A DNA stretch of 64,000 bases from Verrucomicrobiota bacterium (GCA_023443455.1 JAEZUE010000103.1:51885-115884), one strand, 5' to 3'. Positions 2,490 through 12,879 are shown, numbered from the stretch's first letter. Notes: a model not told the origin generated them from the letters alone. Translations and numbers: made by a program.

Positions 2490-3302
2490 ATGAACCCCGG
2501 CCGTCTCGACAAGTACGTCTCGCTCCGTCGCCTCGATACCTCGCTCGACGCGATCGGTGGAGTCGTGGAGTCGTGGACGCATGTGGCCTGGGTCTGGGCG
2601 CAGAAGCTCCCGGAGAAAGGCCGCGAATTCATCGCTGCGCAGGCTCGCGTTGCCGAGGCCGCCGCGGTGTTCCGCATCCGCTACCGCTCCGACATCGCCG
2701 CGACGTGGCGCATCTTTTCCGAGGGGGTTGGCTACCAGGTGGCGGCTCCGCCGGTCGAAGTTGGCCGGCGGAGCTTTCTCGACCTGATCGTACGCTCTGC
2801 CCCGCCATCCGATCCGCAGTGGCCGCTGTCGAACGTGTTTGAGGTCTCGCTCAAGGCGGGCGAGGCGTTGCGTGCCGTCACCTTCGCCGCCGCCTTCGAG
2901 TCGGCGCCGCGTGGCCTCTACGTGCAGCTCCTCGTCCCGGCCGGTGGCGAGACGTTCGAGGTGTTGATCAACCCGGCAAACATCACGGCCGCCGGCTTCG
3001 TCGCCGAGTTCGGCGCCGCAGTTCCGTCGGGCGGGTACAAGCTCAGCGTCCAGGCGTTTCAGTTCGTGCAGACGTTTACGGTCGAGCTGACGGACGGCGC
3101 CGCGTCGCAGGCCGTCGAGTTCGCCACCGCGTTCCCGTCCGTGCCTCGTGGGCTCAAGGCCACGCTCCTGCCCCCGTCCGACGGCTACGAGTTCACCGCC
3201 GCGCTGGTCGTCAAGTCTCTCACCGCCGCCGGATTCTCTCTCGAGTTCGGCGCCATCGTCCCCGGGCCCGGCTACCGCGCACTCATCCAAGTTTCGCTAT
3301 GA
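2490..3302 (+). CDS. Head-tail adaptor (SPP1 gp16 / head-closure family) fused to two tandem ~78-aa lectin-like repeats
   Basis: Residues 1-105 (LDKYVSLRRL...DAIGGVVESWTHVAWVWAQKLPEKGREFIAAQARVAEAAAVFRIRYRSDI) fit the head-tail joining family. Residues 114-191 and 192-270 are internal repeats. Confidence 0.7.
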   Translation: MNPGRLDKYVSLRRLDTSLDAIGGVVESWTHVAWVWAQKLPEKGREFIAAQARVAEAAAVFRIRYRSDIAATWRIFSEGVGYQVAAPPVEVGRRSFLDLIVRSAPPSDPQWPLSNVFEVSLKAGEALRAVTFAAAFESAPRGLYVQLLVPAGGETFEVLINPANITAAGFVAEFGAAVPSGGYKLSVQAFQFVQTFTVELTDGAASQAVEFATAFPSVPRGLKATLLPPSDGYEFTAALVVKSLTAAGFSLEFGAIVPGPGYRALIQVSL

Positions 3303-5854
3303 GAAAGTCCACCGCCATCCTACTCGCCGCGCTCTGCCTCGCCCCGTACGCGCAGGCCCAGAACACCCTCGCCGGTAACCTGACCGTGCAGCAGACGGTC
3401 AAGCTCACCGGTGCCGCGTCGCCCGCCCAGATCACGTCAAACGTCAACGACTACGCGCCGACCGGGTTCGCCACGGCATCCGTGCTCCGCCTCCAGTCCG
3501 ACGTCCCGCGCACCATCACCGGCCTAGCAGGCGGCGTCGCCGGGCGCATGGTCTGGCTGACCAACGTCGGATCGCAGACGATCACGCTGGCGACGGAGTC
3601 GGCATCTTCGACGGCCGCCAATCGCTTCGCCTTCGGAGCGCTCGGCTTCGATCTCCCGGCCGGCGGGAGCCTCAGTATCTGGTACGACACCACGTCCAGC
3701 CGTTGGCGCGCCGCGACCAATCTCGCCGCGGGTGGTGGTGGCGGAACCATTGACCAGACCGCCCGCGACGCAGCGGCGGCCGCCCAGGCCACCGCCGACG
3801 GCAAACAGGACGCGCTGGCCAACGCGGCCACGCTGGCAAAGGTCAGCGAGTCCGGCGGCCTCCCGCTTTGGGACGGCTCCGCGTGGCCCGGCGGCGGTGG
3901 CGGCGGGACCGGCACCGTGACAGAAGTCTCCGTCGTCACTGCGAACGGCGTATCGGGATCAGTCTCCAACGCGTCGACCACGCCGGCCATCACCATCTCG
4001 CTTGGCTCCATCACTCCGGCGAGCGTCGCGGCGTCCGGCACCGTCACCGGCTCGAATCTCAGCGGCACGAATACCGGTGACCAGACCAACGTCACCGGCA
4101 ACGCCGGCACGGCGACCAAGCTGGCCACGGCCCGCACGATCAATGGCGTCTCCTTCGACGGTACGGCCAACATCACCGTGCCGGCCGCCGCCGGCACACT
4201 CACCGGGTCCACGCTGGCGAGTGGCGTCACTGCGTCGTCCCTGACCAGCGCCGCGGGCGGATCCTTCGGCACCGCAGCCTTTACGGCCGCGACCTCGTAC
4301 GACCCGGCCGGATCCGCCGCCGCGATCACGCTTGCCGGTCTCGGCGGAGTGCCGACGTCGCGCACGGTCAACGGGCACGCGCTCACGGGCAACGTCACGG
4401 TGACGCCGTCCGACCTCTCGCTCGTGATCGGCGCGAACACCCAAGCATGGTCTACGAAACTCGATACCATCGCCGCCCTCGCCGCTGGCTCCGGGTGGCT
4501 GCACAACGACGGAACCGGCGCGCTCGCGTGGTCCATCCCTAGCAAGTCCGACATCGGCCTCGGATCAGTCGAGAACACCGCGCTCTCGACGTGGGCGGGC
4601 TCCGCGAGCATCTCGACGGTCGGTACCATCACCTCGGGCACATGGCAGGGAATGGCTGTCGACGACACCTACGTCGCCAGCGCCGCGGCGTGGAACGCGA
4701 AGGTCTCGTTCCCGGGATTTGGCACGACCGGCTCGACCGCTGCCGTTGGCAACGACTCGCGCTTGAGCGATGCCCGCACCCCGCTTGCGCACAACCAAGC
4801 GTGGAGCACGATCACTACTACCCCAACCACGTTGAGCGGGTACGGCATCACCGATGCGCAGGGGTTGGACTCTGACCTCACTGCGCTGGCTGGTAACAGC
4901 ACCAACGGCCTGTGGGCGCGGACCGGCTCGGGCACTGGCGCAGCTCGCACCATCACCGGCACCGCCAACCAAGTCACCGTGACGAACGGCGACGGCGTGG
5001 CAGGCAACCCGACACTAGCCTTACCCCAGAGTATTGCCACAACGAGCACACCACAGTTCGCCAGAATCGGCATTGGGCAAGCTGCTGACGCAGCAATCGA
5101 GGTGTCGATTGCGGGCAACTTGATGCTACCGGGAGCCGGAAGGCGCATTCTGGGGGACTTCTCAAACTCTACCTTCCCAAATCGGCTAATATTTCAATCA
5201 ACAACTACGAATGGTAATACCAACGTGATGGCAATGCCGAACGGGACGGCGACGCTATCGAGTTGGACGCTACTGAACTCATCGAGTGCGACGGATTGTG
5301 CGAAGCTGCAATTTTATACGACCGGTGCGTCATCCCACCACCTAAACTCGGGGCATGTTGGATCCGGGACAACCCTGTCCGTGGCCTTTTCCATCGATGA
5401 CATTCCCGCGCTAGAGATTTTAACCACCCGAGCAATTAAGTTACCGACCTACGGCGCCGGCACACTCGTCACCGACAGCTCGGGCAACGTCACCGCTTCA
5501 TCGGACGCCAGCCTCAAGACCGTAACGGGCACGTTCACGCGCGGTCTCGCTGACGTTCTCAAGCTCACGCCACGTACATACCACTGGAATGCGCAGTCCG
5601 GCATGAATACGGATGACGAGAACGTCGGCTTCATCGCGCAAGAAGTCCTCGAATCCATCCCCGAAGCGGTGGGGCAATATCGCACCTCCGAAGTCGAGGT
5701 TGACGGGAAGAAGACCAAGAAGCGCGAAAAGGCCGAGCTGCTCACTCTTTCCGACCGCCCGTTGATTGCCGCGCTGGTCAACGCCGTGAAGGAATTGAAG
5801 GCCGAGAACGACGCGCTCAGCGCACGCATCGCGAAACTGGAGGGGAAGAAGTGA
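3299..5854 (+). CDS. Tail fibre/spike-like protein with a C-terminal intramolecular-chaperone (peptidase S74) domain and an N-terminal Sec-type signal peptide
   Basis: N-terminus MRKSTAILLAALCLAPYAQA-Q. A fibre repeat is present (TGNAGTATKLATARTINGVSFDGTANITVPA). The C-terminus LKLTPRTYHWN...NVGFIAQEVLESIPEAV...LIAALVNAVKELKAENDAL is typical of S74 chaperone domains. Confidence 0.75.
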   Translation: MRKSTAILLAALCLAPYAQAQNTLAGNLTVQQTVKLTGAASPAQITSNVNDYAPTGFATASVLRLQSDVPRTITGLAGGVAGRMVWLTNVGSQTITLATESASSTAANRFAFGALGFDLPAGGSLSIWYDTTSSRWRAATNLAAGGGGGTIDQTARDAAAAAQATADGKQDALANAATLAKVSESGGLPLWDGSAWPGGGGGGTGTVTEVSVVTANGVSGSVSNASTTPAITISLGSITPASVAASGTVTGSNLSGTNTGDQTNVTGNAGTATKLATARTINGVSFDGTANITVPAAAGTLTGSTLASGVTASSLTSAAGGSFGTAAFTAATSYDPAGSAAAITLAGLGGVPTSRTVNGHALTGNVTVTPSDLSLVIGANTQAWSTKLDTIAALAAGSGWLHNDGTGALAWSIPSKSDIGLGSVENTALSTWAGSASISTVGTITSGTWQGMAVDDTYVASAAAWNAKVSFPGFGTTGSTAAVGNDSRLSDARTPLAHNQAWSTITTTPTTLSGYGITDAQGLDSDLTALAGNSTNGLWARTGSGTGAARTITGTANQVTVTNGDGVAGNPTLALPQSIATTSTPQFARIGIGQAADAAIEVSIAGNLMLPGAGRRILGDFSNSTFPNRLIFQSTTTNGNTNVMAMPNGTATLSSWTLLNSSSATDCAKLQFYTTGASSHHLNSGHVGSGTTLSVAFSIDDIPALEILTTRAIKLPTYGAGTLVTDSSGNVTASSDASLKTVTGTFTRGLADVLKLTPRTYHWNAQSGMNTDDENVGFIAQEVLESIPEAVGQYRTSEVEVDGKKTKKREKAELLTLSDRPLIAALVNAVKELKAENDALSARIAKLEGKK

Positions 5855-6057
5855 AGCACCGCCCCGATACCCGTGGCCTCCTCTACTTCAGTATCGCCGT
5901 CCTTGGCGTTTGGGCTGGCGAGCTGGCGAACCTTGGCGGGGCCGAGCTCTTCGCCCGCATCTCCGACCGTTGGCCCGCGCTCGCAATCTCCTCTGTGCTC
6001 GCCGGTCTCATCGCCGTGCGCGCCTACATCGATCAGCACATCTCGCGCAACAAGTAA
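5851..6057 (+). CDS. Small two-TM membrane protein (holin-like topology; function unknown)
   Basis: The GTG start overlaps the fibre stop (GTGA). 68 aa with two hydrophobic helices and a basic C-terminus. Confidence 0.4.
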   Translation: MKHRPDTRGLLYFSIAVLGVWAGELANLGGAELFARISDRWPALAISSVLAGLIAVRAYIDQHISRNK

Positions 6058-6063
6058 CCAGTC

Positions 6064-6522
6064 ATGAAATACCTAACCACCCTCATCTTCGCAGCGCTAG
6101 CGCTGCTCTGCCTCCAGGCCTGCACTACCACCACCGGCACCAATCCTGATCGCTCTGCGGCCATCACCAGCGCCGTCCTTGAGCTCGCCGGCACGGCCAT
6201 CGCCCCGGTGCTCACGAACAACCCCGAGTACCGTCCCGTCGCCTCTGGCGTGGCCGAGGCGCTCGGCACTCTCGAGACCGGCACCATCACCGCGGAGACG
6301 GTCCGCAGCTTCATTGCCGCCTTGGCTGAGCGTCAGGGTTGGGCGCCCGACCAGCGCGCCTATGCCGAGCTCATGGCCGCCTCCGCCTGGACGATCTACA
6401 CCGCGCAGACCGGGCAGACATCAGCTCCCGTATCCGACCCGCAGACGCTCGCGTGGATCTCCGCTTTCCGCCGTGGCCTGCAAACCGCCGTCGCACTCAG
6501 CGCCGCGCCCGCTTCGTCCTGA
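6064..6522 (+). CDS. Phage-encoded lipoprotein (hypothetical)
   Basis: Lipobox LLCLQAC after a signal sequence (MKYLTTLIFAALALLCLQAC). The mature part is predicted helical. Confidence 0.55.
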   Translation: MKYLTTLIFAALALLCLQACTTTTGTNPDRSAAITSAVLELAGTAIAPVLTNNPEYRPVASGVAEALGTLETGTITAETVRSFIAALAERQGWAPDQRAYAELMAASAWTIYTAQTGQTSAPVSDPQTLAWISAFRRGLQTAVALSAAPASS

Positions 6523-6524
6523 CC

Positions 6525-6737
6525 ATGGCCCTCGGCGAATCCATCTTCTCGGCCATCGCGAACGTCTTCGGTCTCACCCGGGACCGGAGCGCACTGCGCA
6601 ACTCGCCCGCGATGCAGGCGAGCAAGGCCGCGAAGACGGACGCCACCATCCGAGCCGAGTCCACGGCCGCCGTCGCCGCCGCCAAGACCGGCGACGCCGA
6701 AGCCCTCGAGAAACTCCGCCGACTCACCGCCGAATGA
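6525..6737 (+). CDS. Hypothetical small protein
   Basis: 70 aa. It starts 3 nt after the previous stop, and its stop overlaps the next start (ATGA). Confidence 0.35.
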   Translation: MALGESIFSAIANVFGLTRDRSALRNSPAMQASKAAKTDATIRAESTAAVAAAKTGDAEALEKLRRLTAE

Positions 6738-7090
6738 ACACCCTCCGCTCTCTTCTTTTCGGCCTCGGCCTCGCGCTCGCCGTGACCAGCTGCACAACCG
6801 TCGTCCCGACTCCGGCCGATGTGCCAGCCGCTGCGTCCTTCGACGGGGCCGAGCAGAATAGCGGAATCGTCAGCGTGCAGCCCGACGGGCTATTCGTTGT
6901 CACGTCGCATCTGCGTGCCAGGTACAACGCGCTTGTCGCCGACTACGGCCATGAGTTCGCGCCGGCCATCGTCGCAGACTACGGCCTCGCCCCGATTGCC
7001 GAGACCGATCGCTGGACGATGACGCCGCAGGCTATGGCCGACTTTGCCATCATGATCCAGTGGCGACGCATGGGGAGGACCTCCCGATGA
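6734..7090 (+). CDS. Phage-encoded lipoprotein (hypothetical)
   Basis: MNTLRSLLFGLGLALAVTSC lipobox. ATGA overlaps on both sides. Confidence 0.55.
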   Translation: MNTLRSLLFGLGLALAVTSCTTVVPTPADVPAAASFDGAEQNSGIVSVQPDGLFVVTSHLRARYNALVADYGHEFAPAIVADYGLAPIAETDRWTMTPQAMADFAIMIQWRRMGRTSR

Positions 7091-7479
7091 CCGAGTCTCT
7101 TGCCGCTCTCATCACTTCGACCGCGAAGGCCGCCTCTGCCGTCGCCGCCATCGCGGGCTCTCGCATCTATCCGACCGCGGCACCGCAGGGCGTCGTGGCG
7201 CCGTACAGCGTCTGGACTGAGGTGTCCACGGTCGGCGCCGAGTCGCACGACAACATGCTCGGGCAGGACGAGACGCAGGTGCAGTTCGCGTGCTACGCGA
7301 ACGACACGCGCACCGCGCTCCTCCTCCGCTCCGCCATCCGCTCCGCATTTTGCACCGGCGGCGGCTACCTCAACGGCACCACCGTGACGAGCCCGACGCT
7401 CCGCCTTCTTCCCGCCGACGAGGTCTCGTTGGCCAATGCCATTCTCGAACTCACGTTTATCCACAATCCTACCACGTAA
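7087..7479 (+). CDS. Tail terminator / tail completion protein (DUF3168 family)
   Basis: ...GSRIYPTAAPQGVVAPYSVWTEVS...ETQVQFACYAND... matches the DUF3168 pattern. It lies immediately upstream of the tail tube gene. Confidence 0.65.
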   Translation: MTESLAALITSTAKAASAVAAIAGSRIYPTAAPQGVVAPYSVWTEVSTVGAESHDNMLGQDETQVQFACYANDTRTALLLRSAIRSAFCTGGGYLNGTTVTSPTLRLLPADEVSLANAILELTFIHNPTT

Positions 7480-8249: not shown

Positions 8250-8602
8250 TGCGGCAGTGGGCGTTCGCCCGTATCAGCCTTCGCCTAACAGATTCCGAGT
8301 TCTTCTCTTCGACGCCAGCGCAGATCGAGGCCATGACTGAGGTATGGGCCGAAGATCGGCAGTGGGATCTCGCGAGCCGCACAGCATCAGCACTCAATGC
8401 GAAATGGAGCCACGAAAAAAAGGTAGTCCCATTTTCACCACGCGATTTCATTCCGAAGACCGCGGAGGAGAAACGCGCAGATGCGCGAGCGGAGTCAAAA
8501 GCCAGAGCCGAACGCGACCGGATACTCGAGATGAAGTTTGCATCTGTATCCGCAAGCCTACCGAAGAAGGGAGCGCCTGATGGCACGCAGGAAAAACGGT
8601 AG
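8249..8602 (+). CDS. gpT-like segment, probably expressed as a G-T fusion by a -1 frameshift (also has its own ATG)
   Basis: -1 frame relative to 7920-8249, with a TGATG junction. Lys/Glu/Arg-rich C-terminus. Confidence 0.55.
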   Translation: MRQWAFARISLRLTDSEFFSSTPAQIEAMTEVWAEDRQWDLASRTASALNAKWSHEKKVVPFSPRDFIPKTAEEKRADARAESKARAERDRILEMKFASVSASLPKKGAPDGTQEKR

Positions 8603-9107
8603 AGTTGCCCATCTCGACTTTGACCTCGCCGCCGTTCTTGACCTGCAGAGGACGTTAGCCGGGATCGCAGAGAATGTCCGGTCCGATGTTATCGGCGACA
8701 TGGTCGCCGAAGGCGCCAAGCCGATCGTGCGCGCGATCAAGCCGAAGGTGCCTGTCGACCTCGGAAACCTTCGGGCATCCATCGCTTATGGGGTGCGAAA
8801 GAACAGGCGCCGTGGGACAGCTGTCGCCTACGTCGGGCCCGAGGTAGGCGGAATCTTCCGGGCAGGGAAGCGGCTCAACAAAAAGAAGGACGATCTTCGC
8901 GGGGCGTCAGGACCATCTCGCTACGCACACCTTATCGAGTTCGGTCACGCCGCCCGCGACGGATCAAACGTCGAGGCCAAACCATTCATGCGACCCGGAA
9001 CAAACGAGTCGATCAATCAGGTCCAAGGTGCGCTCGTTGTTGGGTTCCAGAAGGGACTTACGCGCGCCGCGAGAAAGTTTGCCAAACGAATCGCAAAGGG
9101 GAAATAG
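8580..9107 (+). CDS. HK97 gp10-family neck/tail component protein
   Basis: ...KPKVPVDLGNLRASIAY...YAHLIEFGHAARDGSNVEAKPFMRPG matches the gp10 family pattern (vP.dtG.Lr.si ... EfGt ... a.PF.rp). GAAGGGAG lies upstream of the ATG. Confidence 0.7.
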   Translation: MARRKNGRVAHLDFDLAAVLDLQRTLAGIAENVRSDVIGDMVAEGAKPIVRAIKPKVPVDLGNLRASIAYGVRKNRRRGTAVAYVGPEVGGIFRAGKRLNKKKDDLRGASGPSRYAHLIEFGHAARDGSNVEAKPFMRPGTNESINQVQGALVVGFQKGLTRAARKFAKRIAKGK

Positions 9108-11668: not shown

Positions 11669-12568
11669 ATGGAGTGGCCACCGCAAGACACTGGCCGTTT
11701 CGCCGTTCCGTTCTGCGTGCAATGCTGCACGTTTGAACCCGTCGATAAATACGAGATATCTGGATCTGCAAACACCGGATACATGATGGTCGGCACACCA
11801 AATCCAGACGGCAGCGGGACAAGCCTGTTTCGCACTGTTACGTGGTCTGGCGGATTCTCGATCCAGTATTCGAACGAAGAGGACTGCTCGATAGTGGAGC
11901 TGACATCGACTGCATCATACAGCGGAGCGAGCACGAATGGCTTCGACATGTCTATCTCTGGATCCGTTGTGCTCTACCAAGACAGCGCTCTTATCGCAGA
12001 GACAAACATCGACGCTCCGAGCCTAGTAGCTCCAAACGGCATGCCAGACGACACCGCGGGAGGAACGACTGGAAGCACCGAATATCTCGACGGAACTGGC
12101 GAGTGTTACGTCGTGAGCGGTGGCAGCATCTATCCGCTTGGGAGGGCAACAGGGCAGGCAGTTGCGACGTTCTCAAACATATGCACGGAGGAGGATTCGA
12201 TTGCGTGGTACGATGCCGAATATCCCGGTTGGGATTCTTGGAGCAATGCCTTCATGGATTCTCTTTGGGACTACGTATGGACATCTGGCTATCAGCCAGC
12301 TCCACCGGCTACCGTTGGATGGTACCGACACGGAAGGATGAGGTTTCGCCGGACAAAGAGCGGATACACGCCAGGCGCACGATACATTTGCCAGATGCAA
12401 GTCGAGCGCACCGCATATGGCGAAGGGGCGTGGGCGCTGTACGCCACGATTGAGACGACTCTTGATGCCGATGCGAGCGGCACATTGACGTGGGAGGGCG
12501 AGACTCCATTTGCCCGCGGATACGAGACATGGGTAAAGGCGCGGTCGTTTACCGCGGTCCCGGCATGA
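11669..12568 (+). CDS. Hypothetical tail-tip / receptor-binding candidate
   Basis: Position only. Trp/Tyr-rich C-terminal half. Confidence 0.35.
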   Translation: MEWPPQDTGRFAVPFCVQCCTFEPVDKYEISGSANTGYMMVGTPNPDGSGTSLFRTVTWSGGFSIQYSNEEDCSIVELTSTASYSGASTNGFDMSISGSVVLYQDSALIAETNIDAPSLVAPNGMPDDTAGGTTGSTEYLDGTGECYVVSGGSIYPLGRATGQAVATFSNICTEEDSIAWYDAEYPGWDSWSNAFMDSLWDYVWTSGYQPAPPATVGWYRHGRMRFRRTKSGYTPGARYICQMQVERTAYGEGAWALYATIETTLDADASGTLTWEGETPFARGYETWVKARSFTAVPA

Positions 12569-12879
12569 GGCTGATCGTCCACCGGCCAGATCTCCATGAT
12601 CCTGTCGCTACGCCGGCGGCGACCGCCGCAACGCCATCCGCGGTCAAGATCGGCAACCTGCGGCGGGCCCTGCGGCGGTGGCAGCAGTCCGGGTTCAAGC
12701 TGACGCCCAGCAGCGAGCGCAAGACGAGGTCCTCCATCTGCGCCGCGTGCCCGCACTGGGACGACGCTGGTAACCTCGGCCTCGGTGAGTGCCGTGCGCC
12801 CGGGTGCGGGTGTACCCGGGCGAAGGTCTGGCTGGCGACAGAGAGGTGCCCGCTGGGTAAGTGGGCGAAGTCCAGCTGA
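12565..12879 (+). CDS. Small Cys-rich (zinc-ribbon-like) protein
   Basis: ATGA overlap with the previous gene. Motif CAACPHW-x13-CRAPGCGC-x12-CPLGKW. Confidence 0.4.
   Translation: MRLIVHRPDLHDPVATPAATAATPSAVKIGNLRRALRRWQQSGFKLTPSSERKTRSSICAACPHWDDAGNLGLGECRAPGCGCTRAKVWLATERCPLGKWAKSS

Follow-up and report, generated by a model that had tools for sequence, protein, structure and literature searches.

A leader-bearing fibre gene and a putative lysis cassette within the neck module of a Verrucomicrobiota prophage

In the textbook account of tailed-phage assembly, all virion proteins come together in the cytoplasm. The subject of this analysis is a prophage of a Verrucomicrobiota bacterium (GCA_023443455.1) in which a block of five genes, headed by the gene of a tail-fibre-like protein with a secretion leader, lies within the neck module. 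The window, that is, the whole stretch of 64,000 nucleotides that was analysed, corresponds to positions 51885-115884 of contig JAEZUE010000103.1 (C6), and positions below are counted in the window; all genes and domains of the block, its flanks and the head module described here lie on the + strand. The prophage spans ~31.4-66 kb of the contig (~35 kb) and ends with an integrase gene adjoining tRNA-Thr, and its late half occupies the first 13 kb of the window. The host is putatively an uncultured Opitutaceae bacterium, and the phage is proposed to belong to a family of temperate siphoviruses of Opitutaceae from among soil and water bacteria.

Upstream, the block is bordered by the gene for the head-closure protein Hc1 (270 aa, 2490-3302). 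It consists of the genes for an S74-type fibre of 851 aa (3299-5854), assigned by PF13884 and PHROG tail-fibre families, and for four small proteins that were described from their sequences: s1, of 68 aa with two transmembrane (TM) segments (5851-6057), s2, a 152-aa lipoprotein with the lipobox LQA-C (6064-6522), s3, a soluble or amphipathic protein of 70 aa (6525-6737), and s4, a 118-aa lipoprotein with the lipobox VTS-C (6734-7090). The gene of the tail terminator (7087-7479; PF11367, phrog_347, phrog_78) forms the downstream edge. The successive junctions are ATGA (3299-3302), GTGA (5851-5854), gaps of 6 and 2 nucleotides, ATGA and again ATGA. An earlier note on this DNA had described the five genes at 3299-7090 between Hc1 and the terminator, and their sizes and coupling were found as it gave them; it was likewise right that the products are targeted to the envelope, since the leader, the TM segments and the lipoboxes are all present, and that such a position of a fibre gene in the neck module is atypical of siphoviruses.

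The Sec-type signal peptide of the fibre comprises residues 1-20 (3299-3358), reads MRKSTAILLAALCLAPYAQA before a mature start at QNT, and has a predicted signal peptidase I site AQA-Q. The leader, which had been noticed in this single sequence, turns out to be a conserved family trait. Among 23 cluster representatives, which carry 18 distinct leaders, its length is 19-23 aa and the net charge of the first eight residues is +1 or +2; the Kyte-Doolittle mean of the hydrophobic region is 2.4-2.9 over the 18 distinct leaders. In 23 of 23 cases the cleavage site is preceded by Ala (20), Gly (two) or Ser (one) at -1 and by Leu (11), Ala (nine), Ser (two) or Val (one) at -3. By the sequence criteria applied, the leader fits a cleavable Sec signal. 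For most pairs of lineages residues 1-20 are 15-35% identical, and the following residues Q21-Q31 (QNTLAGNLTVQ) are invariant. A leader that varies freely but keeps its length, charge, hydrophobicity and -3/-1 residues in front of an invariant mature start points to a generic targeting signal rather than to a protein-contact segment. An internal start downstream of the leader was considered and rejected, since the invariant segment follows the cleavage site directly and no alternative start with an evident ribosome-binding signal was seen. In a literature search, neither tail fibres with a leader nor phage fibres of Verrucomicrobia or Opitutaceae were found described; P8625, the sole cultured phage of subdivision-4 Verrucomicrobia to emerge from it, was reported without any signal peptides.

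The mature fibre begins with a beta-rich domain of ~117 aa (residues 21-137, 3359-3709), which opens with the invariant segment and has 37 invariant columns in the alignment; its Pfam match to the Phage_depo_C beta-sandwich is weak (E 0.015). The shaft (residues ~138-589, 3710-5065) is made of a Gly-rich linker, a helical segment and repeated fibre modules (phrog_1980, 5668, 11011, 1833 and others) and is 44-68% identical between related phages. It is followed by a hypervariable distal tip of ~140 aa (residues ~590-733, 5066-5497). Column identity in the tip is 2-18% among four phages whose other structural proteins are conserved, and tips are swapped for unrelated ones between phages that have 45-96% identity in the rest of their structural proteins. 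The tip overlaps a patch of low GC content (0.55 at 5001-5500 versus 0.67-0.71 elsewhere in the fibre gene), and no paralogue of it was found in the prophage or the genome. The C-terminal S74 chaperone and self-cleaving domain (residues 734-851; 5498-5854 with the stop codon) was recognized by PF13884, Peptidase_S74 (residues 735-791, E 1.6e-10, 41.6 bits versus a cutoff of 22), and begins with SDASLK, an instance of the SDxxxK Ser-Lys motif by which the S74 cleavage site is defined (PMC10769870). A sequence search of the PDB with the fibre found nothing.

Within the structural module the tip is the only hypervariable part: the tail-tip proteins t1-t4 contain no variable region, and the last large one has a C-terminus conserved at 90-100%. 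The fibre is also the only fibre-size protein in each phage genome examined and, judged by its sequence, looks like the host-range protein that recognizes the host surface. Its N-terminal domain has one copy in its own genome and no match in 400 other genomes of the phylum, which marks a phage gene rather than a cellular family. The S74 fibres of other phages, such as the K1F endosialidase, the L-shaped fibre pb1 of T5 and the neck appendage of Bacillus phage GA-1, share the C-terminal PF13884 domain, the trimeric modules and a variable receptor part in front of the chaperone, and the GA-1 appendage is a precedent for a receptor-binding appendage attached to the neck. They differ in having no secretion signal and folding in the cytoplasm, and siphovirus S74 fibre genes lie with the tail genes, unlike the fibre gene of the window between the head-closure and terminator genes.

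Hc1 itself is unusual. Its assignment comes from PF05521 in residues 1-102 (73.6 bits versus a cutoff of 25), from phrog_25 and from its position after a gp6-like connector, and its remaining 168 residues form a C-terminal extension outside the PF05521 family. In the AlphaFold2 (AF2) model the N-terminal domain is poor and the extension has a pLDDT of 70-94. A Foldseek search with the extension gave short local matches, with a probability of ~1 but a weak E-value of ~0.1, to tailspike C-terminal domains, R-pyocin fibre tips and Helix pomatia agglutinin, and from these the extension can tentatively be modelled as two H-type-lectin-like beta-sandwich repeats. The best-conserved part of Hc1 is formed by its last ~60 residues, within the second repeat (80-88%). 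Without exception the fibre gene follows the Hc1 gene directly, and in every lineage its start overlaps the Hc1 stop codon. The lectin-like repeats are known only from phages with the fibre block; among the other 76 Hc1-related loci in IMG/VR, most have a short Hc1 of 103-125 aa, and the longer ones were not searched for lectin repeats. A conserved lectin-like collar next to an invariant mature fibre start suggests that the two may be a docking pair.

Relatives of the phage were found by protein searches with the fibre, followed by reading of the contigs, and further loci came from pattern scans. In all, ~10 related phage contigs carry the block in the same order. An extended Hc1, a leader-bearing fibre, a small TM protein and a lipoprotein (with s3 and s4), the terminator and the tube protein follow each other in L002/3, L004, L007, L014, L021, L023 and L046. 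The same order is seen in L005 and L006, where only the TM protein and the lipoprotein follow the fibre and where the capsid differs from that of the window lineage and the protease, likewise different, is of ClpP/SDH type. In L025, an Hc1 with one repeat instead of two precedes a fibre with a diverged mature N-terminus (QTQLIGNAVIQQ). An identical prophage protein was found on 14 contigs of public assemblies, and a nucleotide search against cultured phages gave no match. In L014 (7371-8426), from a metagenome-assembled genome of Opitutaceae, Hc1 and the fibre share a continuous frame; a fusion by frameshift was considered, but the fibre frame is broken further on, and both features are most simply explained by indel errors in what appears to be a long-read assembly.

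The block also stands where another gene would be expected. In the other 76 IMG/VR loci, the open reading frame (ORF) after Hc1, where it is readable, typically has a start like that of the gp10-family protein Ne1 and never an export leader. In the window, this neck protein of the HK97 gp10 family (8583-9107; phrog_5, E 2.7e-14) is displaced to a position just before the tape-measure gene; PF04883 is recorded at Ne1 in the gene tables of all relatives, and the displacement is common to all phages that carry the fibre block. The earlier note had taken the genes of Hc1 and the terminator to be normally adjacent, which does not hold, as in canonical relatives an Ne1-like ORF typically follows Hc1. 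Its proposal that synteny could expose the block as an indel among related prophages fared no better, the block being kept in every relative found. The note had further held that its view would fail if related phages all had the same order with demonstrated structural roles for the small proteins: the order is indeed common to them, and the agreement is in gene order rather than in demonstrated structural roles. Read from gene order, the lineage carries a rearrangement relative to canonical siphoviruses, with Ne1 displaced and the fibre and small genes in its place, and this rearrangement is old and fixed rather than a recent insert. No promoter or terminator signal above chance was found inside the block.

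None of the proteins s1-s4 has a family match in Pfam, PHROGs, NCBIfam or PADLOC. The topology of s1, with a basic N-terminus, two TM segments and a short polar C-terminus containing basic and acidic residues, would fit a holin-like inner-membrane protein, and its sequence is 72-88% conserved in the lineage. Other phages have unrelated small TM proteins in this place upstream of the lipoprotein, one of which, in L049, is PF23987 Phage_holin_10. The lipobox Cys of s2 is invariant, and the s2 family, which is phage-borne and uncharacterized, comprises 228 clusters at 50% identity. Among the family representatives listed, ~17% have an N-terminal extension of at least 60 residues; in the extended forms that were read (P0150, P0156, P0158, P0202 and P0232) a two-TM holin-like part is fused before the lipobox, so that TM segments, and not a lipid, would hold the helical domain at the inner membrane. 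The AF2 model of s2 has a five-helix bundle in the mature part (pLDDT 84). Foldseek gave no meaningful match for this model in the PDB, and its best BFVD match is 'Lipoprotein [uncultured Caudovirales phage]'; a sequence search of the PDB with the s2 profile found nothing, and while scans of JGI metagenomes recovered two s2 relatives, those of IMG/VR recovered none. A lysozyme- or transglycosylase-like fold is not supported for s2, which, with no PDB fold match and no invariant acidic residue, is not an obvious enzyme.

The other two small proteins are of narrower occurrence, both being confined to the window lineage. In L002, L004, L007, L021, L023 and L046 s3 is 30-90% conserved, and it is absent from L005 and L006. 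In all copies of s4, the lipobox (A/G/S)C is followed by TTV; the protein is restricted to the window lineage, as a narrow family of 24 clusters, and its divergence tracks that of the backbone genes (r 0.88-0.97 with Hc1 and Tc). Co-variation was tested in six phages (15 pairs), with an automatic division of the fibre that was faulty for the tip segment in L002 and L023, and no link was found in this set between s2 and the fibre N-domain, the tip or the backbone. Two alleles of s2 occur, ~30% identical and unlinked to the backbone; the same allele is found in phages whose tips are unrelated, and different alleles in phages whose N-domains are identical.

The neighbourhoods of s2 homologues in other phages speak to the function of the small genes. 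In L049, a 71-aa PF23987 holin, an s2 homologue and a 101-aa Rz-like protein with one TM segment and a coiled coil are encoded just upstream of an Hc1 of normal size. In L044, L045 and L048, which have a lambda-like head, the order is a leaderless fibre-like protein, a leader-bearing fibre-like protein, a small TM protein, an s2 homologue, an Rz-like protein and the integrase; the 246-aa neck protein of the L044 phage was considered as a lectin-extended Hc1 and is not one. In G267, a genome of the same order, an s2 homologue and an Rz-like protein are encoded directly upstream of the terminase, which is the usual slot of the lysis genes in lambdoid and Mu-like phages. An Rz-like protein thus follows the s2 homologue in L044/45, L049 and G267. 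In the ~35-kb prophage, family searches of the window genes and visual reading of the early-region ORFs revealed no endolysin, holin or spanin family, and recognizable families of these kinds are likewise missing from L002, L004, L005 and L044/47. Since these searches turned up no lysis family in the prophage and s2 homologues lie beside holins and Rz-like proteins, s1-s4 are best read, from sequence and context, as the lysis cassette of the phage. The phage group may use an undescribed muralytic enzyme.

Two known arrangements are comparable. In phage P2, the lysis module Y, K, lysA, lysB and lysC lies between the head-completion gene L and the tail-completion genes R and S (PMC3091744), so that there, too, genes for membrane and lipoproteins of lysis type stand between head- and tail-completion genes and the last of the lipoprotein genes runs into the first of the tail genes. 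P2 differs in having an endolysin and an Rz/Rz1-type spanin pair, neither of which is found in the window block, and in having no fibre gene there; the window lipoproteins are also larger and helical, whereas those of P2 are small and proline-rich. Secreted or signal-arrest-release (SAR) endolysins with their pinholins (phage 21, P1 Lyz, fOg44 Lys44) are likewise exported late through Sec and become effective when a small two-TM protein of holin type acts; the exported protein of the window, however, is a fibre without a muralytic domain.

Leader-bearing fibre-like proteins were also observed outside the block. In L044 (6785-8431), L045 (7010-8653) and L048 (7931-9469), a protein of 512-548 aa, unrelated to the window fibre, carries the leader MKTLFLLAAVLTLTPLAALA in front of QSQNV; its gene follows that of the leaderless fibre-like protein, of 589 aa, and stands directly upstream of the genes for the small TM protein and the s2-family lipoprotein. 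To judge from the sequences, the pairing of a leader-bearing fibre-like protein with TM and lipoprotein genes recurs independently there. In L031 (6372-10800) and L035 (6069-10206), one of which is a contig of 42% GC, there are runs of ORFs resembling fibres or virion structural proteins, all of which have signal-peptide-like leaders. Leader-bearing fibre-like genes may be common in uncultured phages.

The explanation favoured here, to which we assign a probability of roughly 40%, is a composite one: a host-range fibre that is exported and a lysis cassette would be combined in the late operon, and the fibre would dock at the virion neck after holin action. It takes as its basis the conserved block, the features of the leader, the swapping of tips and the occurrence of s2 homologues with holins and Rz-like proteins. 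The fibre would be made late, exported via Sec and cut by signal peptidase I before Gln21, and the C-terminal S74 chaperone would trimerize it and then cut itself off. The lysis cassette would comprise s1 as a holin-like protein, s2 as a helical lipoprotein of a lysis-associated family, and s3 and s4 as lineage-specific accessories. The processed fibre would wait in the periplasm and, only once the neighbouring holin opens the inner membrane, would dock by its invariant N-terminus onto the lectin-like Hc1 collar at the neck, so that maturation of the particle would be completed at lysis. A place in the virion is favoured by the fact that the fibre is the sole variable and the sole fibre-size protein, that its gene is coupled to that of the collar-bearing Hc1 within the virion operon, and that it adjoins a holin-like gene. 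Among the roles raised by the earlier note, we take an unusual periplasmic assembly step to be the single most likely fate of the fibre. The complete two-compartment assembly, with a periplasmic fibre that joins cytoplasm-built particles after the breach of the inner membrane and a virion that becomes infectious at lysis, is nevertheless a rather doubtful proposition when taken as a claim of its own.

Several observations weigh against this composite explanation. To our knowledge, no tailed phage adds an exported protein to its particle. The N-domain of the fibre is a movable module and no dedicated virion anchor: copies of it sit within leaderless tail fibres, one from a Bradyrhizobium phage and one from an uncultured podovirus, and occur in tandem in other metagenomic proteins. 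Fibre-like proteins of both kinds, leaderless and leader-bearing, are encoded in the L044 lineage, which would fit a non-virion role of the leader-bearing one. The divergence of Hc1 is not tracked by that of the fibre N-domain (the window phage and L004 are 95% identical in Hc1 and 56% in the N-domain), which makes a specific docking interface less likely, the invariant N-terminal strand excepted; as the two do not co-vary, the link between Hc1 and the fibre rests on their co-occurrence in one syntenic block. On the side of lysis, s1 has no match to a holin family, and no Rz-type partner is present in the window lineage, s3 having no TM segment; s2 and s4, with mature parts of 132 and 98 aa, are not small proline-rich lipoproteins of the Rz1 type; and s2 has neither an invariant acidic residue nor a lysozyme-like fold, so that the endolysin is still missing.

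The alternative that survives best, which we regard as possible though somewhat improbable, is that the exported fibre never enters the particle: its N-domain would be held on an envelope element, possibly one of the lipoproteins encoded next to it, and its tip would bind a glycan of the host surface. As part of this alternative, such a fibre would act late by masking or clearing receptors for the progeny, by excluding superinfecting phages or by aiding release through capsule or exopolysaccharide. The model is provided by the MAT fibres of Bdellovibrio bacteriovorus, which have a signal peptide, a domain of ~130 aa that is conserved and rich in beta structure, a trimeric fibre and a tip of mosaic make-up (Caulton et al. 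2024, PMC10769870); an S74 domain is present in 13 of 21 MATs, the proteins are displayed on the surface of their producer, and their N-terminal domain is not in the PDB (PMC10769870). The comparison is one of architecture only, and by this analogy the MAT family would be the closest functional and design counterpart of the window fibre: in both, a leader precedes a conserved beta-rich domain, a fibre and a mosaic tip, the S74 chaperone has the SDxxxK motif, and one end is conserved while the other is diversified. It differs in that MATs are a multi-copy chromosomal family on the predator's own surface, whereas the window fibre is single-copy and phage-borne and is encoded in a virion operon beside lysis-type genes.

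Besides the match to the MAT architecture (PMC10769870), a fibre outside the particle would accord with the envelope nature of all neighbouring products, with the presence of a leaderless fibre-like protein in L044/45/48 besides the leader-bearing one that adjoins the TM-lipoprotein pair, and with the absence of co-variation between the N-domain and Hc1, and it would require no unprecedented route of assembly. It would, however, leave the structural module without any protein of receptor-binding-type variability and the extended Hc1 without an explanation, and it would have to account for the coupling of the gene to virion genes. A masking protein would have nothing to mimic, as no virion protein shares the tip domain, nor does the tip co-vary with s2, whose alleles are shared across unrelated tips. 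The single-copy, phage-borne state of the gene and its absence from 400 other genomes of the phylum are unlike the MATs, and export minutes before lysis would limit the usefulness of a surface adhesin.

A second alternative concerns the small proteins and was among the roles proposed in the earlier note. In it, s1-s4 would serve not lysis but superinfection exclusion or receptor blocking, in the manner of T4 Imm/Sp, T5 Llp, phi80 Cor or TP-J34 Ltp. A two-TM protein and periplasmic lipoproteins beside a fibre gene do correspond to the classical Imm/Sp and Llp/Cor layout, in that T5 Llp, phi80/N15 Cor, T4 Imm/Sp and TP-J34 Ltp are likewise small inner-membrane or lipoprotein genes beside a host-recognition gene; the two s2 alleles of ~30% identity, unlinked to the backbone, are what host-linked selection might produce; and s1 lacks a holin family match, with no endolysin nearby. 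There is, however, no similarity of sequence or fold to these proteins, no co-variation of s2 with the tip in the 15 pairs, and no sign of independent expression, such as a promoter signal for activity in the lysogen. In L049, the place of s1 is taken by a PF23987 holin. In three other contexts, one of them the lysis slot before the terminase of G267, s2 homologues have Rz-like TM/coiled-coil neighbours, and their fusion to a two-TM part is frequent. The s2 model found no meaningful counterpart among solved structures, PADLOC gave no match, and the phage would otherwise be left without any lysis genes. The holin and Rz-like neighbours and the two-TM fusions are better explained by a lysis cassette, and we consider exclusion possible but rather unlikely as the function of these genes.

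It is very unlikely that the leader is unused, so that the fibre would fold in the cytoplasm and join the neck or tail in the ordinary way, with its hydrophobic N-terminus buried in the particle or taken off by a different protease. Assembly is cytoplasmic for all known tailed-phage fibres, the S74 fibres T5 pb1, K1F endosialidase and GA-1 neck appendage among them, and the gene position and the coupling to Hc1 would suit an ordinary virion component. Yet 18 of 18 leader variants keep their length, charge, hydrophobicity and -3/-1 rule in front of the invariant mature N-terminus, and such an N-terminus would engage the Sec machinery in any bacterium. Least credible of all, and scarcely tenable, is the earlier note's suggestion of lysogenic conversion, by which the block would be a moron expressed from the prophage to alter the host surface or adhesion: envelope-targeted products, a tip of foreign base composition and precedents inside structural operons (lambda lom, HK97 gene 15) can be cited for it, but the block occurs in all relatives, however deeply diverged, a different capsid lineage included, is joined to the virion genes by stop/start overlaps at most junctions (the two gaps being of 6 and 2 nucleotides), has no promoter or terminator signal of its own above chance, and deviates in GC only in the fibre tip and not over the cassette, so that neither the autonomous expression, nor the sporadic distribution, nor the deviant composition of a moron is found.

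The rest of the late half is as follows. The head module in the window begins with the C-terminal part of the capsid gene (3-833), followed by an ORF of 267 aa (893-1696), the gp6-like connector (1690-2265) and, between the connector and Hc1, a 69-aa two-TM protein with a charged C-terminus that was described from its sequence (2277-2486). Both extra ORFs, which had been taken as inserts in the head module, exist, and the one at 893-1696 is an accessory gene present in only some relatives: its slot holds a gene of the same length in L004, a 276-aa gene in L046 and a gene of 67-71 aa instead in L002 and L007. The 267-aa product has no match in Pfam (even at E up to 5), PHROGs, NCBIfam or PADLOC, and a resemblance to DUF115/MptE was not confirmed by profile search. 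The slot at 2277-2486 is held by called genes of 77 and 84 aa in L004 and L007; the 69-aa protein has no family match in Pfam, PHROGs, NCBIfam or PADLOC and may, by its topology, be a holin or the antiholin partner of s1. Downstream of the terminator lie the genes for the tube protein, chaperones, Ne1, a tape measure of 402 aa and the four tail-tip proteins t1-t4, the last of which have no match in Pfam, PHROGs, NCBIfam or PADLOC. A small Cys-rich protein at the end of the tail module (12529-12879) matches phrog_13558, whose function is unassigned, and is kept at 38-41% identity in the otherwise unrelated L044/45 phage (L044 4629-4985). Upstream of the window, the same prophage encodes a large terminase of 916 aa (L008 1317-4067) with a LAGLIDADG-type insert, an intein or homing endonuclease, as compared with 527-594 aa for the terminases of relatives.

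The phage family described here carries a conserved secretion signal of cleavable type on its only fibre of host-range type, beside probable lysis genes. The locus also offers a case of a lysis cassette, as we read it, within the neck module of a siphovirus, a phage group that lacks a recognizable endolysin, and a large uncharacterized family of lipoproteins (228 clusters) associated with holins and Rz-like proteins. If the fibre is instead kept out of the particle, it would represent a new class of phage adhesins that are exported late and resemble the MAT fibres of Bdellovibrio in design. If the two-compartment route is true, it would be a new route of assembly, in which a fibre is added to the particle after the membrane opens, and one that may be widespread and overlooked.

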